The notes under the pieces: generated by a model | Seen by the model: the letters and a program-made list of their open reading frames with translations, nothing else | Told to the model about the DNA's origin: nothing | The model's database searches: none | In this document: piece after piece, positions 9,681-35,610 of the stretch | How positions within the stretch are numbered: the stretch's first letter is position 1 | Layout: every line of letters starts with the position of its first letter | Made by a program: the position numbers and the translations under genes | NCBI GenBank assembly: GCA_964385635.1 | Contig: CAYLPU010000011.1 | Span: 133-64,132, forward strand | Direction: 5' to 3' | DNA: 64,000 nucleotides | Origin: an uncultured Anaerolineales bacterium | Lineage (GTDB): Bacteria > Chloroflexota > Anaerolineae > B4-G1

Positions 9681-10565
9681 CTAATCTACCTCCAATTGGC
9701 ATCGGTGTTGCCACTGCTCGACTGCCTGCTTTTCCTCCTCCAGGTAGAACCGTTGCCGGGCCAGCAGCAGGTTCCAGTCCACCTGGTGTGCGTCGAACTC
9801 AGGCCCATCCACGCACACGAACTTCGCACCGTCGGTCAACTGCACCCGACAGCCGCCGCACATGCCCGTCCCATCAATCATAATCGTGTTCAGGCTGACG
9901 ATGGTGGGCACTTTGAAAGGTTCTGTCGTTGCAGCGCAGAACTTCATCATGATCGCCGGCCCGATGACCCACGCCCGGGCGATTTCTCCGTCGCGCTGTT
10001 CCAGCAACTCCTTGAGCGGTTCGGTGACTAGCGCTTTGCGCCCATAAGAGCCGTCGTCGGTGCAGACGATCAGTTCGTCGCTGACTGAGCGCATCTTGTC
10101 TTCCCAGAAGAGCAGTTCACGAGTGCGCGCCCCGATGATCGAGATGACGGTATTGCCGGCTTCTTTGAGCGCCCGCGTGATGGGGTAGAGGGGCGCGATG
10201 CCAACACCGCCCCCTACACATACGACAGTCCCGTAGTTCTTGATCTCGGTCGGATGTCCGAGTGGCCCGGTGAAAGTGGCCAATTCGTCACCCGGCTCAA
10301 GTGTCCCCATGTGCATCGTCGTCTTGCCGACCTCCTGGAAGATGAGCGTGATGGTACCCGCTTCCTGGTCGTAGTCGGCGACGGTGAGCGGTATGCGTTC
10401 TCCACGTTCGTCGACGCGCACGATGACGAACTGGCCTGCCCGTGTCTTGCGTGCCACTTCCGGTGCGGCGATGACCATCAACTTGTTGACCTCGCTGAGT
10501 ATTTCCTTGTGCAAGATTTTGTACACAGACTGCCTCCCAATCTTTTTGTGCTTCACAGTGCGCAC
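9681..10565 (-). CDS. nfnA: Sulfide/dihydroorotate dehydrogenase-like FAD/NAD-binding subunit (NfnA/SudB-type)
   Basis: 294 aa ferredoxin-NADP reductase-like fold with C-terminal GTGMCGGCRV 2Fe-2S motif. It lies directly upstream of the GltD-like partner. Confidence 0.8.
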   Translation of the reverse strand: MRTVKHKKIGRQSVYKILHKEILSEVNKLMVIAAPEVARKTRAGQFVIVRVDERGERIPLTVADYDQEAGTITLIFQEVGKTTMHMGTLEPGDELATFTGPLGHPTEIKNYGTVVCVGGGVGIAPLYPITRALKEAGNTVISIIGARTRELLFWEDKMRSVSDELIVCTDDGSYGRKALVTEPLKELLEQRDGEIARAWVIGPAIMMKFCAATTEPFKVPTIVSLNTIMIDGTGMCGGCRVQLTDGAKFVCVDGPEFDAHQVDWNLLLARQRFYLEEEKQAVEQWQHRCQLEVD

Positions 10566-10668
10566 AAAGGATACCGCTATTTCGCCCGATAGTCAAGTTG
10601 CGTTCAGCGTGCTTACGGCGTGACATTTCTCATCATTTGACCTCTCGTCCTTCTGATGCTACAATAGA

Positions 10669-11133
10669 ATGAGAGCAAGATTGGGACAGTGGATGGCCCA
10701 CGTGGCAACCGGTTACACAGTTGATGAACTGATCTCCGTATGTATCGCCCGCCAGGTGGCCGACGGCGACGTTCTCGCGCAGGGAATCGCCACGCCGCTG
10801 GTTATGGCGGGCTATTTGTTGGCCAAACACACCCACGCGCCCCACGTTTCTTTCGCCTCGGCCGCTGGCAACGCACTGGTAGACAAACCTTGTGTTCGGG
10901 CTGTTGGCGTGGCGGTGGAGAAAATCCGCGTCAAGACAGGCATTCCCCTCGAGGCCGCTCCCGACCTGCGCGAGACCGAACTACTGAAGGTTGAAGAAGT
11001 CCAATTATTACGTGAGGTGATTGACCCGCTGGGCATCCGTCGCCTGGAGACCCTCAGCGATGGGGCGCGCAAGCGTGCCCTGCGGGAGATATTGGAGAGT
11101 GAGAAACAGGCTGCGTCGCAGGGCCTTACTTAA
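10669..11133 (+). CDS. CoA-transferase beta-subunit remnant (apparent in-frame internal deletion)
   Basis: The N-terminus YTVDELISVCIARQVADGDVLAQGIATPLVMAGYLLAKHTHAPHV and the C-terminus VEKIRVKTGIPLE...PDLRETELLKVEEVQLLREVIDPLG look like the two ends of a roughly 250-aa GctB/IpdB-type subunit joined in 154 aa. No alpha subunit is nearby. Confidence 0.45.
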   Translation: MRARLGQWMAHVATGYTVDELISVCIARQVADGDVLAQGIATPLVMAGYLLAKHTHAPHVSFASAAGNALVDKPCVRAVGVAVEKIRVKTGIPLEAAPDLRETELLKVEEVQLLREVIDPLGIRRLETLSDGARKRALREILESEKQAASQGLT

Positions 11134-11141
11134 CCACAAGT

Positions 11142-11302
11142 GTAACTACTCAGCCACCCCCACGCGGAGCGTTGAAACGCCCCGCTGATACGGCGAAACC
11201 CGTTAAAACGGGTTAGAAAGTCGCGTTTTAGTGCGTTTTAACGCACTTTGCGTATCAGCCGATGGTTTCAACCATCGGCGGGGCAAACGGGTGAGTAGTT
11301 AC
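11142..11302 (+). mobile_element. 161-bp MITE-like element, copy 1 (TIR GTAACTACTCA; TSD CCACAAGT)
   Basis: Terminal inverted repeats are gtaactactca (11142-11152) and tgagtagttac (11292-11302). It is flanked by direct repeats ccacaagt at 11134-11141 and 11303-11310. It is identical to the reverse complement of 34476..34636. Confidence 0.8.
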
Positions 11303-11329
11303 CCACAAGTCTCAATTAGGAGGTGAGTC

Positions 11330-12574
11330 ATGGAATCGAATCTCGATCTGAACCGCGCCATACCAGTGTTGGATTGGGCTCCACATCTGGCCTCGCGCAC
11401 AGAAAGTATGAAGAGTTCCGCTATCCGCGAATTGCTCAAGCTGACTCAAGATCCAGACGTGATCTCCTTCGCGGGAGGCTTGCCAGCCCCGGACTTCTTC
11501 CCCCTGCGCGAGATCGAAGAAGCCTGCCGGTACATCATCCGCGCGGACGGCGCTAGAGCACTGCAATATGGTGCCACCGAGGGATACGGACCGCTCAAGG
11601 AGTACCTGGCTACCACAATGCATAAGTATGGCGTCCCGGCTGTGCCAGGCAACCTCCTGCTGACCAATGGCTCTCAGCAGGCTCTGGATCTGGTTGGAAA
11701 ACTGTTCATTGACCCCGGCGACTACATCCTCACTGGACGCCCCACTTACCTGGGAGCAATCCAGGCCTGGAACGCTTATCAGGTGCGTTACCACACTGTG
11801 CGCCTCGACGACGACGGCATGGTTGTGGACGAGATGGAGCATGCTTACGAAAAGGTGCTTGCCGATTCCGGCGAGCCGCCCAAGTTCATTTACGTGCTGC
11901 CCAATTTCCACAATCCTGCCGGTACGACGATGCCTCTGGAGCGCCGCAAGCGGCTGGCTGAAATCGCCACGAGACTGGATCTCCCCGTCGTCGAGGACGA
12001 TCCCTACGGCCAGTTGCGGTACGAAGGAGAGGACATTCCTCCCATCGGCACCTTCATCCCCGAGCGTACAATTTACCTGGGGACCTTTTCCAAGATCCTG
12101 TCCCCGGGTCTGCGGCTGGGATGGATCGTATGTCCAGAGGTACTGATGCAACGCTTTGTGCAGGCCAAGCAGGGCGCTGACCTGCACACGAGTAGCTTTG
12201 TTCAATACATCGCCAACGACATCTGCCAGCGGGGCCTGATCAAGCCACACGTCAAGCGACTGTGCGATGCCTACAGAGAGCGGCGGGACACGATGCTTGA
12301 TGCGTTGGCTGAATTCTGGCCCGACGGTAGCAGTTGGACCCGTCCGCAAGGCGGGTTGTTTCTTTGGGCCCGCGTGCCGGAGCCCATTGACACGCTTGAG
12401 TTCTCGAAGGAGATCGTCGCCGAGAAAGTCGCCTATGTGCCTGGCGTCCACTTCTACCCCAACCAGGATGGGGGGCGCAATGCCATGCGGCTCAACTTCT
12501 CCTACTGCCCGCCGGATGTCATCGTCGAAGGTATCCGCAGGCTGGGCGCGGTGCTGAAGAAGGCATTGAGGTAG
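11330..12574 (+). CDS. PLP-dependent aminotransferase (class I/II fold, LysN/2-aminoadipate transaminase-like)
   Basis: SAIRELLKL...ISFAGGLPAPDFFP...YGATEGYGPLKEYLA...TFSKILSPGLRLGW (PLP lysine). RBS AGGAGGTGA lies upstream. Confidence 0.85.
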   Translation: MESNLDLNRAIPVLDWAPHLASRTESMKSSAIRELLKLTQDPDVISFAGGLPAPDFFPLREIEEACRYIIRADGARALQYGATEGYGPLKEYLATTMHKYGVPAVPGNLLLTNGSQQALDLVGKLFIDPGDYILTGRPTYLGAIQAWNAYQVRYHTVRLDDDGMVVDEMEHAYEKVLADSGEPPKFIYVLPNFHNPAGTTMPLERRKRLAEIATRLDLPVVEDDPYGQLRYEGEDIPPIGTFIPERTIYLGTFSKILSPGLRLGWIVCPEVLMQRFVQAKQGADLHTSSFVQYIANDICQRGLIKPHVKRLCDAYRERRDTMLDALAEFWPDGSSWTRPQGGLFLWARVPEPIDTLEFSKEIVAEKVAYVPGVHFYPNQDGGRNAMRLNFSYCPPDVIVEGIRRLGAVLKKALR

Positions 12575-31553: not shown

Positions 31554-32950
31554 TCCGATCCCGTTTCTCTGTGTTCTACCAGCCGGTGCTCGTATTTCTC
31601 CAATGCAGCACTAAGTGCGCTGTTGGCTTCCACGCCGCAGGCTTCGGCCAGCATCAGCAGGCTGTAGAGCGCGTCTCCCAGTTCGTCCGCCAGTTGGGGG
31701 CGGAACTGGAGGACTCGCCGCCCGTAGTCTGTGGCCAGTAATATCTCCTTTACCACCTCACCGACCTCAGAGACCAGATCGAGCGCGTGGGTGGCTGGAT
31801 CGTGCAGTAGATTGTGGCGCTGAGCGAAAGCGGCGACTTTTTGCTGCCAGTTGGCTACGGGCGGTGGGCTCTTGAACCCACTCCCGGTCAACACGACGAC
31901 CGGCACATCGCCCAGGCGGTCGCGCAAGTGATCCAGCGCCGCCACGGCAAGCGCGGAGGTCGGCTCGACGTAGACTCCCCGCCGGGCCAGTTTTCTCTGT
32001 GCGGCCAGAGTCTCTTCGTCCGGCAGGGCCAGTACCGCGCCACCGCTTCCGCGCACAGCAGACAGCACCGCCCGGCCCCAGGGTGGTGCGGCAATCCGCA
32101 CACCCTCCGCGATGGTCTCTTGCTCCTCGATTGGCTCTATGTTGGCCTCATCGCACTCCCAGGCGCGTGCTAGTGGCGCACACGCTTGTGCCTGCACACC
32201 GAGAAGACGCGGCAGCCGCTCTATGAGACCCGCCGCCAACAGCTCACTGAAGCCAGCGTGCAACCCAAGCAGCAACCCTCCTTGTCCCACTGGCACCACG
32301 ACGCTTTCTGGTGCGCGACCGTTCAACTGCTCCCACAATTCGAAGGCGATGGTCTTCATGCCCTGCGGATAGAGGGGGCTGTAGACGTGGCTGGCATAGA
32401 CAGCGCCCTCCTTGGCAGCCTGGCGCACGGCGCGAGCGGCCTCACTGCGGGGTCCGGGCACTGGCACGACCTCCGCGCCGTAGGCCGCGATCTGTGCCTG
32501 CTTGACCGGTGACGTGTGGGCCGGCACATATACGGTGGCGTGGAGGTCTGCGCGGGCGGCATAGGCCGCCAACGCAGCACCGGCATTGCCCGAAGAATCC
32601 TCGACGACATCCCGCACGCCCACTGCCTTCAGCGCCGTGACCAGCACAGTCGCGCCCCGGTCTTTGAAGGAGCCCGTGGGGTTGAGGTGCTCGGCCTTGA
32701 GGTAGATGGGGCGGTTGTGCCATTCGGCGGCGACCAACGGGGTCCAGCCCTCGCCCAGCGTCACCGGAGCCGTACCATCCAGCAAAGGCAGCGAAGCCCG
32801 GTAACGCCAGAGGGTGTGCTCTCGTTCATCCACGAGAGTTTGGTCGAAGGAGGAGACGCCCGCGATCTCCAGCGTACCGCCGCAATCACAACACCAGTGC
32901 GCGGGATCGAAAGGCCAACTCCGCGAGCAATCGCTACAGTACAGGTTCAC
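31550..32950 (-). CDS. Threonine synthase-like PLP enzyme fused to a C-terminal MazG-like nucleotide pyrophosphohydrolase domain
   Basis: N-terminal zinc ribbon YCSDCSRSW...CCDCGG. LNPTGSFKDRG PLP-lysine motif. The C-terminal roughly 100 aa are DLVSEVGEVVKEIL...LADELGDALYSLLMLAEACGVEANSALSAALEKYEHRL. A likely GTG start at 32950 overlaps the HEPN stop (GTGA). The track start is 32992. Confidence 0.8.
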   Translation of the reverse strand: MNLYCSDCSRSWPFDPAHWCCDCGGTLEIAGVSSFDQTLVDEREHTLWRYRASLPLLDGTAPVTLGEGWTPLVAAEWHNRPIYLKAEHLNPTGSFKDRGATVLVTALKAVGVRDVVEDSSGNAGAALAAYAARADLHATVYVPAHTSPVKQAQIAAYGAEVVPVPGPRSEAARAVRQAAKEGAVYASHVYSPLYPQGMKTIAFELWEQLNGRAPESVVVPVGQGGLLLGLHAGFSELLAAGLIERLPRLLGVQAQACAPLARAWECDEANIEPIEEQETIAEGVRIAAPPWGRAVLSAVRGSGGAVLALPDEETLAAQRKLARRGVYVEPTSALAVAALDHLRDRLGDVPVVVLTGSGFKSPPPVANWQQKVAAFAQRHNLLHDPATHALDLVSEVGEVVKEILLATDYGRRVLQFRPQLADELGDALYSLLMLAEACGVEANSALSAALEKYEHRLVEHRETGSE

Positions 32951-33372
32951 CTGGGCTCGCCCTCGGCACCCTCCAATACCTCCACGATCCACTGGATAAC
33001 GTGCTGCGCCTGGCGAAGCGCCTTCTCTGCGTCATCAGCGTCGAAGGCCTCGGCCGGAATTCCGCCTGGCAGCCCATTGGGATAGCGGGTGGGAATATAG
33101 TGTCGATCGAGTCCCCCTCCCACGCCAATCAGTGTCTCGAAGCGAGCGTCGTACTCGGCGGCTTGTCGGGCCAGGTCGGCCACCGAATGCCCCCACACCC
33201 TTTCCACTCCTTGGGCATACAGATAGCCCTTCAGGGCCTTCTCGCCAGCCTGCTGCGCCAGAAAGCACGTCAGGTGGTAACGCCCGCCAGCCTGGTTGTA
33301 GCGGGCATCATCAATGTCTTGCCGCGCTTGCCGCAGCCAGCGTTCGCCTTCCTCTCTCGGATCAGGCCTCAT
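32947..33372 (-). CDS. HEPN domain protein (toxin-like partner of MNT)
   Basis: An internal ATG at 33372 gives 141 aa: MRPDPREEGERWLRQARQDIDDA...EKALKGYL...DRHYIPTRYPN. The track ORF 32947..33591 is over-extended. Confidence 0.8.
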   Translation of the reverse strand: MRPDPREEGERWLRQARQDIDDARYNQAGGRYHLTCFLAQQAGEKALKGYLYAQGVERVWGHSVADLARQAAEYDARFETLIGVGGGLDRHYIPTRYPNGLPGGIPAEAFDADDAEKALRQAQHVIQWIVEVLEGAEGEPR

Positions 33373-33703
33373 AGAGCACTCTCCCTTCCTGCAGAGCCTG
33401 TCGTATGAATGGCCGTGCGCGGAGCGCCTCGAACTCCTGCGGTGTGTATGCCAGCAGGTCAAGGCCAACACGGGGTTGAATCCGCTCGTACAGCAATTCC
33501 AGCCGCTTGACAAACGGCAGGTCGGAATCGAGCACGACGATGAGATCCAAATCGCTCCATGCACTGACCTTCTCGCGGGCAACAGAGCCAAATAGGATTA
33601 CGCGCTTAGCTCCTATCTGGCGCAGAACCCGCACAGCACGCTCAAGTTCACGCTCCAGCAATGCCTGCCTATCAGCGCGTTGCTCTTGCCAGTATTCTAT
33701 CAC
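33362..33703 (-). CDS. Nucleotidyltransferase (MNT) domain protein
   Basis: ILFGSVAREKVSAWSDLDLIVVL (GS...DxD). The GTG start overlaps the GT2 stop (GTGA). Its 3' end overlaps the HEPN start by 11 nt. Confidence 0.85.
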   Translation of the reverse strand: MIEYWQEQRADRQALLERELERAVRVLRQIGAKRVILFGSVAREKVSAWSDLDLIVVLDSDLPFVKRLELLYERIQPRVGLDLLAYTPQEFEALRARPFIRQALQEGRVLYEA

Positions 33704-34419
33704 TTCGGCTTCTCCTCGCGCAATTCCCGGCTCAGCCGCAGCCGGAAGCGCACCAGGTCACGGAACGCCCTGGCGATCACTTTGACATTGCCACCGGTGG
33801 ACTCGCCCGCCAGGCGCGGCAGATGAGTCACCGGTACATCGGCGATGCGGTAACCACGTGCTCGTGCCTTGAACAGGAACTCTGTGTCAACCATCGCTCC
33901 GTCGGAAACGATGGTCACGTGCTCCAGGATATCGCGCCGGAACAGTTTGAAGCCACAGTCGACGTCGCGGCACAGGTAGCCGAATAGCAGCCGCATCAGT
34001 GTATTCCAGCCAAAGGCAAAGAATTTGCGGACGATGTTATCCTGCCGGTCGGCCCGGTAGCCGGACACGATGTCTGCCTCGTCGAGGCGCTCCAGAAGCC
34101 GGTTGATCTCGCTGAAGACAAATTGGTTGTCCGCCGGGGCGAACGCGATCAGTTCCCTGGTGGCAGTGGCAAATCCGGCCTTCAGCGATCCTCCATAGCC
34201 CCGGTTGGGGTAATGCTCCACCAGCCGGAAATTGGGGATGCGCTGCGCCAGTTCGCGGCCGATTTCGCCAGTGCGGTCGGTGCTGCCGTCGTTGACCAGG
34301 ATGATCTCGTAATCCATCCCCAACTGCTGGGCCACAGTGGAAACCTTCTCCACGGCGCTTTCGACGTTTGCCTCTTCATTGTAGGCGGGAAGAATGATGG
34401 AAAGACTGGGCATCATCAC
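33700..34419 (-). CDS. Glycosyltransferase family 2 (polyprenol-phosphate sugar synthase-like)
   Basis: LSIILPAYNEEANV...ILVNDGSTDRT...GYGGSLKAG. Confidence 0.9.
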   Translation of the reverse strand: MMMPSLSIILPAYNEEANVESAVEKVSTVAQQLGMDYEIILVNDGSTDRTGEIGRELAQRIPNFRLVEHYPNRGYGGSLKAGFATATRELIAFAPADNQFVFSEINRLLERLDEADIVSGYRADRQDNIVRKFFAFGWNTLMRLLFGYLCRDVDCGFKLFRRDILEHVTIVSDGAMVDTEFLFKARARGYRIADVPVTHLPRLAGESTGGNVKVIARAFRDLVRFRLRLSRELREEKPK

Positions 34420-34475
34420 CTCTCATCAAATGTCGGCCCTAATGTTACACCAATGTGCGTAAATTGGCAATTAGC

Positions 34476-34636
34476 GTAACTACTCACCCGTTTGCCCCGC
34501 CGATGGTTGAAACCATCGGCTGATACGCAAAGTGCGTTAAAACGCACTAAAACGCGACTTTCTAACCCGTTTTAACGGGTTTCGCCGTATCAGCGGGGCG
34601 TTTCAACGCTCCGCGTGGGGGTGGCTGAGTAGTTAC
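34476..34636 (-). mobile_element. 161-bp MITE-like element, copy 2 (inverted relative to copy 1; TSD CAATTAGC)
   Basis: The reverse complement is identical to 11142..11302 by base-by-base reading. It is flanked by caattagc at 34468-34475 and 34637-34644. It lies between the divergent GT2 operon and ftsY. Confidence 0.8.
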
Positions 34637-34652
34637 CAATTAGCAGTCTATA

Positions 34653-34698: not shown

Positions 34699-35610
34699 AT
34701 GGCTACCGGGATTGCCCGATCAATCAGAGACAGTTTGACGCGCACGCGCAACGCCGTCTTTAGCCACATCGCGGAGCTGCTGGGGGCCAGCCAGGTGACG
34801 GCTGCCACCTGGGACGAACTGGAGGAATTGTTGATCCAGGCCGACGTGGGCGTGGAGACGACGCTCTATCTGGTCGAGCGGCTGCGGAAGCGCACCCGTG
34901 ACGAGGCGATTCTACAGGCCGGCACGTTCCAGACGGTGTTGCGGGAAGATCTGCGGGCGCTGCTGCCCGACTCACCACCGCTCAACCTGGGAGGCCGGTC
35001 GCTGGACGTGGTGCTCATCGCCGGCGTGAATGGGTCGGGAAAAACGACGAGCATCGCCAAACTGGCTCATCGCTACCAGAGGCAGGGCCGGCGGGTGCTG
35101 CTGGCGGCAGCCGACACGTTTCGTGCCGCAGCGATGGATCAACTGGGAATATGGGCGGAGCGGGCGGGCGTGGACATCGTCACCGGTCCAGAGGGTGGGG
35201 ATCCGGGTGCGGTCGTCTTTGATGCATTGCAGGCTGCGCGAGCGCGGGGGATGGATATGGTGATCGCCGACACTGCCGGGCGGCTGCACACGCAATACAA
35301 CCTGATGGCTGAGTTGCGAAAAGTGTGGAGGGTGGCGGCGAAGAACGCCGAGGGTGCACCGCACGAGACGCTACTGGTGGTCGATGCCACCACTGGGCAG
35401 AATGCGCTATCGCAGGCGCGGCACTTTCAGGAGGCGGTGGAGGTGACTGGCGTCGTGCTGGCCAAGTTGGATAGCACGGCCAGAGGCGGGATGGTCTTCG
35501 CCATTGCCCGCGAATTGGGGCTACCGGTACGCTTCGTTGGTACTGGAGAGAAGATAGAAGACTTGACTCCGTTCGACGCTGATGCGTTTGTGGAGGGGCT
35601 GTTGGGGTAG
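34699..35610 (+). CDS. ftsY: Signal recognition particle receptor FtsY
   Basis: [22 protein letters not shown] and [11 protein letters not shown] (SRP GTPase motifs). Confidence 0.95.

Follow-up and report, generated by a model that had tools for sequence, protein, structure and literature searches.

What is the compact, non-coding DNA that fills the gap in front of an aminotransferase gene in the 64-kb stretch analysed here (hereafter the window), and what put it there? An earlier sequence-only reading had proposed a MITE-like element of 161 bp (11142-11302) with 11-bp terminal inverted repeats and an 8-bp target-site duplication, filling almost all of the space from the stop codon at 11133 to the aminotransferase ribosome-binding site, and had taken it to be devoid of coding capacity. 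All of these points were borne out, the placement by direct read-out of the sequence, and the sections below trace the element from its ends and copies to the transposase that most likely moves it and to the fold of its interior.

Ends, flanks and copies of the element in the window

The copy in front of the aminotransferase gene (copy A, + strand, 11142-11302) starts with the 11-bp sequence GTAACTACTCA (11142-11152) and closes with its reverse complement TGAGTAGTTAC (11292-11302), giving terminal inverted repeats that are perfect over 11 of 11 bp and that match at 13 of 14 positions if extended. In this extended form the left repeat is GTAACTACTCAGCC (11142-11155, + strand) and the right repeat, on the - strand at 11289-11302, reads GTAACTACTCACCC inwards. 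The element is bracketed by the 8-bp direct repeat CCACAAGT, present identically as target-site duplication on the left (11134-11141) and on the right (11303-11310), an 8-mer that differs at all other insertions. The stop codon of the upstream ORF (TAA, 11131-11133) directly abuts this duplication, and the start codon of the aminotransferase gene (ATG, 11330) follows 27 nt downstream of the end of the element with an AGGAGG ribosome-binding site in between. When ORFs of at least 50 aa were looked for, none was found within the 161 bp, and the only one to touch the element (11021-11188) begins in the upstream gene and covers its first 47 nt. That upstream gene (10669-11133) is a decayed CoA-transferase gene, which aligns to residues 1-67 (93% identity) and 207-278 (75% identity) of the 289-aa CoA_trans protein of relatives, lacks about 140 internal residues and has no Pfam family match left.

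With up to one mismatch allowed, the terminal 11-mer occurs four times in the window as against 0.26 expected, and four or more occurrences were seen in none of 100 shuffles. The two matches that do not belong to copy A locate a second copy (copy B, - strand, 34476-34636), which is identical to copy A at 161 of 161 positions and lies in the opposite orientation. It sits in the intergenic space of two divergent genes, one encoding a family-2 glycosyltransferase (33700-34419, - strand), the other ftsY (34699-35610, + strand). Copy B is flanked by its own 8-bp direct repeat, CAATTAGC (34468-34475 on the low-coordinate side and 34637-34644 on the high-coordinate side), which is unlike that of copy A, and the similarity between the two copies ends exactly at the ends of the inverted repeats. 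The two intergenic regions, one upstream of the aminotransferase gene and one between the glycosyltransferase gene and ftsY, are thereby marked as recently disturbed. Just beyond the glycosyltransferase gene, two - strand genes encode a HEPN-domain protein (32947-33591) and a nucleotidyltransferase (33362-33703) and resemble a pair of the toxin-antitoxin type; because the two mechanically called ORFs overlap, the true start of the HEPN gene is probably downstream of the called one. Judging from the names on the closest aminotransferase homologues and from MAG titles, the host is presumably an uncultured member of the Anaerolineae (Chloroflexota).

Copy number and insertion sites in metagenomes

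Contigs covering the two window loci were found in JGI, ENA and Logan metagenomes via the exact aminotransferase and FtsY proteins. Seventeen of the 20 contigs stop inside the element, most of them with an overlap of 139-141 nt, approximately the k-mer of the assembler, as expected of a multi-copy repeat whose length exceeds the k-mer; the MITE thus explains the short-read assembly breaks at both loci. The three contigs that span the element are all filled, and the element in them is 100% identical. In one of these three (L004, 1-536, compared with the window from 11137 onward), the right flank of copy A is joined to the left flank of another copy, and two further contigs (L091 and L092) show insertion-sequence flanks, AGTTTTAA and CATCGAAA, that are crossed over; assembly chimerism or real recombination between copies could account for either case.

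When GTDB representative genomes and JGI metagenome contigs were scanned for a degenerate 22-nt version of the terminus, the 161-bp element was detected in public metagenomes at 89-100% identity. At 12 independent sites it is bracketed by a perfect direct repeat of 8 bp, no two of the 12 being alike (CCACAAGT, GCTAATTG, GTCCATCT, GATTCCGG, CTCAAAGA, GCCGGCAC, GTTGAGGC, CTTTTTTC, AACGCCGG, TCGTAGGT, CAAATCTC and CACAAGGG). If copies of at least 96% identity are counted and told apart by their flanks, they occupy 12 or more distinct sites, namely the two in the window and at least 10 others, and a single JGI sample (Ga0208279) contains six copies 100% identical to those of the window. The sequence-only reading had named two findings that would speak against a mobile element, the window pair being the only copies and the flanking 8-mers belonging to a longer conserved repeat. 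The copy number is instead far above two, and the 8-mers are specific to their sites. Since the two window copies and at least 10 others of this population show little or no divergence, the data point to a recent burst of transposition.

When the insertion sites were restored, most fell outside long open frames. The 12 duplications reveal no clear consensus as a target-site preference; an A at position 5 and a G at position 7 occur in 7 of 12 each, an excess that may be due to chance. Among 72,556 plasmids searched by BLAST with the 161-mer and with a 30-nt consensus terminus, only short chance matches were obtained. The search for empty sites, which the sequence-only reading had also suggested, was successful only in part. 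All spanning contigs from the population of the window are filled and yielded no clean empty-site allele, and the loci of related species with aminotransferases 86-87% identical (L096-L099) are too diverged, with the partial exception of L099 (aminotransferase 86% identical). This locus is without the element, and a single CCATAAAT takes the place of the CCACAAGT-[MITE]-CCACAAGT of the window; its left (upstream) flank is not orthologous, carries a different deletion and is not alignable.

The same data bear on whether the element might be a REP/BIME-like or other host-maintained palindromic repeat, with flanking 8-mers that are coincidental or lie within a longer repeat. An intergenic location and several small palindromes would be in keeping with such a repeat. 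REP/BIME units, however, are short palindromes that lack inverted-repeat ends and target duplications, both of which the element has: its flanking 8-mers are perfect direct repeats at 12 or more sites with a different sequence at each, the similarity between copies stops exactly where the inverted repeats stop, and a transposase-bearing element with the same ends exists (see below). The site-specific duplications already contradict this explanation, and we regard its probability as close to nil.

An IS66-family partner with the same ends

The lack of any coding capacity had led the sequence-only reading to look to a transposase-encoding parent with the same inverted repeat and an 8-bp duplication, and a 1628-bp insertion sequence of the IS66 family, from the same samples as the window, fits this description. 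It was found by tblastn of IS66-type transposases against all fetched loci, having been missed by the 22-nt terminus pattern because its ends diverge from those of the MITE after base 15. The element occupies 3867-5494 of contig L044, ending at the contig end, is bounded by the perfect 16-bp inverted repeat GTAACTACTCAGCCAT and contains one ORF of 502 aa with DUF6444, zf-IS66 and DDE_Tnp_IS66 domains, which scores 315 bits on the IS66 equivalog model NCBIfam NF033517 (cut-off 180). The MITE agrees with its ends at 15 of the first 16 bases on the left and 14 of the first 16 on the right, and the similarity of the two elements is limited to the terminal 15 and 11 nt. A simple deletion derivative of this insertion sequence was considered as the origin of the MITE and was ruled out, there being no similarity beyond the termini.

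The insertion sequence and the MITE occur together. Contig L044 also bears a MITE copy, whose flank is identical to a contig of JGI sample 3300005919, a sample that also holds contigs of the window, and the exact transposase, within identical 1628-bp copies of the insertion sequence, is present in ENA ERZ27315452, ERZ27315835 and ERZ27315977, samples with the aminotransferase or FtsY contigs of the window. The 1628-bp element is 100% identical in five contigs (L044, L103, L104, L105 and L107), one of which consists of exactly the element; it has a perfect 8-bp duplication, TTTCTTTT, at one site, and at a second site both flanks, read from separate contigs, are CCATAAAA. It lies on contigs separate from those of the window (G+C of the insertion-sequence contigs, 55% vs. 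61%). From the shared samples and the contig shared with a MITE copy, we infer that the insertion sequence is resident in the genome of the window. A related insertion sequence (L101) encodes a transposase 85% identical to that of L044 and has the same 16-bp inverted repeat, with the duplication CAGGCACC.

The surroundings of the 1628-bp insertion sequence are rich in mobile elements. An IS3-type HTH_Tnp_1 orfA fragment and a MerR-like gene are found on L044 (125-400 and 990-1502), and IS21-type IstA-like and IstB genes adjoin the second copy of the insertion sequence on L103 (1-2115). Another related insertion sequence (L102, transposase P0252) has two copies of its right end at a spacing of 59 nt (1634-1722), the 30-nt sequence CCCTAGCCTGTTGGCGGGCTGAGTAGTTAC ending at both 1663 and 1722.

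We consider it very probable that the 161-bp element belongs, as a MITE, to the ISBst12 group of the IS66 family and borrows a single-ORF IS66-family DDE transposase: it is non-coding, has inverted repeats and site-specific 8-bp duplications, is present in many near-identical copies and has a matching partner, as had been expected of a MITE. The 1628-bp insertion sequence is most likely what moves it. Its 502-aa transposase, supplied in trans, would recognize each MITE end by the terminal sequence common to the two elements (GTAACTACTCAGCC, about 14-16 bp) and would pair the two ends, and the MITE would then be inserted into a target cut with an 8-bp stagger, the repair of which would leave an 8-bp direct repeat that is different at each site. 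Mobilization by this particular transposase, and with it the chemistry of the reaction (copy-and-paste or cut-and-paste), is deduced here from the sequences. The element is a known kind of mobile DNA and reveals no new mechanism; it provides a fully worked pair of MITE and partner for the poorly studied single-ORF (ISBst12-type) branch of IS66, in an uncultured member of the Anaerolineae.

Duplications of 8 bp are produced by several insertion-sequence families, and the homology between the MITE and its partner does not extend past about 15 nt at the termini, both of which would be compatible with a MITE moved by another 8-bp-duplicating family (ISL3, IS6, IS256, IS1595 or hAT-like) rather than by an IS66-family transposase. 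Every single-end match to the terminus was inspected for a partner end and for neighbouring ORFs. Most were other short elements or chance matches inside genes, and only one (L074) had a transposase, an ORF that starts 60 nt inside the terminus GTAACTACTCACCCACCCCCAC and carries DUF6444, zf-IS66 and DDE_Tnp_IS66 domains on a contig that breaks off within the gene. Homologous proteins of 455-480 aa are encoded on contigs of about 1.5-2 kb. Both flanks were available for two of these homologues, one in a 1512-bp element bounded by GTAACTATCTAC with the duplication ATAATATT (L087), the other in an element bounded by GTTACTACTCACCC with the duplication AGTTTTAA (L093). The elements on L044, L101, L087 and L093 each consist of one ORF of 460-502 aa filling 1.5-1.6 kb, with no tnpA or tnpB; their transposases score above the NCBIfam NF033517 cut-off and, like that of L074, match Pfam PF03050, PF13005 and PF20042. 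The transposase genes found just inside such termini thus fall into four independent lineages (L044/L101, L074, L087 and L093), all belonging to the IS66 family, no other transposase type lies beside any of the 66 terminus matches, and the published inverted repeat of ISDge4, an element of the ISBst12 group, is nearly the same. We therefore regard mobilization by one of the other families as extremely unlikely.

The transposases of elements that share this terminus are as little as about 31% identical (L093, L087 and L074), and both the GTAACTACTCA terminus and the 8-bp duplication persist over this distance and in several phyla; the terminus is therefore an old, conserved feature of the single-ORF IS66 branch. 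Short elements of 78-230 bp with the same GTAACTACTCACCC termini, often with 8-bp duplications, have completely different interiors. They are found in Anaerolineae (L045, 167 bp; L058, 78 bp; L063, L061 and L037), in further Anaerolineae and metagenomes (L031 and L035), in a Legionella MAG (L022, 4331-4466, 136 bp, duplication TACTTCGC; also L026) and in an alphaproteobacterial MAG (L030, 4933-5124, 192 bp; also L039 of the Alphaproteobacteria). As the same terminus bounds short elements with unrelated interiors, MITEs have formed repeatedly from ISBst12-type ends in several phyla. A terminus-like match on L042 (GTAACTACTCAGCCACTTCC), from which an ORF resembling a group II intron reverse transcriptase (judged by eye from its translation) lies about 750-1080 nt inward, probably has nothing to do with the MITE family.

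Correia elements of Neisseria and the RUP elements of Streptococcus pneumoniae are likewise short, non-coding, multi-copy MITEs with inverted-repeat ends in intergenic positions, are moved in trans by the transposase of an insertion sequence and break short-read assemblies. Their duplications are TA and the transposases on which they rely come from other families, whereas the MITE of the window has IS66-type ends and an 8-bp duplication.

The ends of IS66-family elements begin with GTAA(GCG) and are flanked by 8-bp direct repeats (PMC11946415), and the MITE ends (GTAACTACTCA) begin with GTAA as this rule requires. The canonical three-ORF elements (IS66 and IS679) resemble the partner in their GTAA ends, 8-bp direct repeats and DDE_Tnp_IS66 domain (PMC11946415); they have GTAAGCG ends, a length of 2-3 kb and the accessory genes tnpA and tnpB, whereas the partner is 1.6 kb long with a single ORF, an N-terminal DUF6444 domain and the ends GTAACTAC. 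A closer relative is ISDge4 of Deinococcus geothermalis (ISBst12 group, IS66 family), which has GTGACTACTCAGCA and GTAACTGCTCAGCA as its inverted repeats, encodes a transposase of 449 aa, is flanked by the 8-bp direct repeat CCTCGATG and has been observed to transpose (PMC12898284). Each of its inverted repeats matches the left end of the MITE (GTAACTACTCAGCC) at 12 of 14 positions, both elements have 8-bp direct repeats, and ISDge4 shares with the partner a single-ORF transposase of about 450-500 aa. It differs from the MITE in being autonomous, with a transposase gene where the 161-bp MITE has no ORF, and in its host, which belongs to the Deinococcota rather than to the Chloroflexota (Anaerolineae). 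The partner itself is like the MITE in 15 of 16 terminal bases, in the length of the duplication, in the samples and in one contig; it differs in carrying the gene for a 502-aa transposase, and the two have sequence in common only at their termini. The interior of the MITE is unrelated to any insertion sequence examined. In the part of the literature that was surveyed, no MITE family assigned to the IS66 family or to the ISBst12 group was found.

Folding of the interior

Four internal palindromes and a long-range stem had been described by the sequence-only reading, and an inverted-repeat search in copy A recovered all of them. Two of the palindromes were exact as described, a hairpin at 11169-11180 (GCGTTGAAACGC) and a palindrome at 11197-11214 (AACCCGTT-AA-AACGGGTT), and the boundaries of the other two had to be corrected, from 11231-11246 to 11230-11247 for the third (AGTGCGTT-TT-AACGCACT) and from 11259-11278 to 11258-11279 for the fourth (GCCGATGGTT-TC-AACCATCGGC), the loop of which is flipped (TTGAAA) in some copies elsewhere. 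The multi-hairpin fold that had been proposed was likewise upheld, with predicted folding energies of -84 kcal/mol for the + strand and -86.4 kcal/mol for the - strand (z about -8 against shuffled controls), so that both strands fold far better than the controls.

A fold this stable on both strands, in an element that ends 27 nt before the aminotransferase start codon and just ahead of its ribosome-binding site, would also be expected of a structured non-coding RNA gene or of a cis-regulatory RNA such as an aminotransferase 5'-leader, the other copies then being paralogous RNA genes. Several observations argue against this. An Rfam scan of 10500-12000 (E up to 1) gave rox1 of Drosophila as its sole match, at 26.1 bits against a gathering score of 58, and an RNA-family identity was dropped on this account. 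Promoter and terminator scans of both copies detected no such site within the element. The copies in the window have opposite orientations relative to neighbouring genes that are unrelated, each copy has its own 8-bp duplication, and palindromic transposon end structure alone accounts for most of the fold. In an alignment of 10 distinct family members, the hairpins gave a covariation term of +0.72 with compensatory pairs at 1 of 62, an analysis that is uninformative because the MITE family is too young. Taken with the evidence for a MITE given above, an RNA gene or leader appears very unlikely.

The fold is real as a physical property, but none of these analyses points to a function of its own; within the MITE, the hairpins of the interior are in all likelihood passenger sequence that serves no separate purpose. 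A different possibility is that the array of near-identical small interior palindromes is a functional module, either a protein-binding array for a host protein or the transposase or a structured leader RNA, that alters the expression of neighbouring genes. The array would in that case comprise three palindromes with a CGTTNNAACG core together with GGTTTCAACC, which could pair locally or with each other. We think this unlikely, giving it only a small chance. If true, the neighbours affected would be the aminotransferase gene, 27 nt away, and the divergent promoter region of the glycosyltransferase gene and ftsY, and the unrelated interiors captured between such ends in Chloroflexota, Legionella and Alphaproteobacteria would suggest that ISBst12-type ends might be a general vehicle for spreading small regulatory cassettes.

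Small rearrangements within the fold distinguish some of the copies. The loop of hairpin 4 is reverse-complemented (TTTCAA to TTGAAA; 11266-11271 in the window), with the stems unchanged, in L044 (1663-1823), L049, L051 and L027, and in the L044 copy this is the only difference from the window copies, which suggests a loop inversion mediated by a hairpin or cruciform. The same loop contains a 7-nt tandem duplication (GTTTCAA) in L077 (2540-2707), and a 6-nt tandem duplication (GTATCA) is found in the long-range stem of L072 (2415-2581) and L034 (6046-6212).
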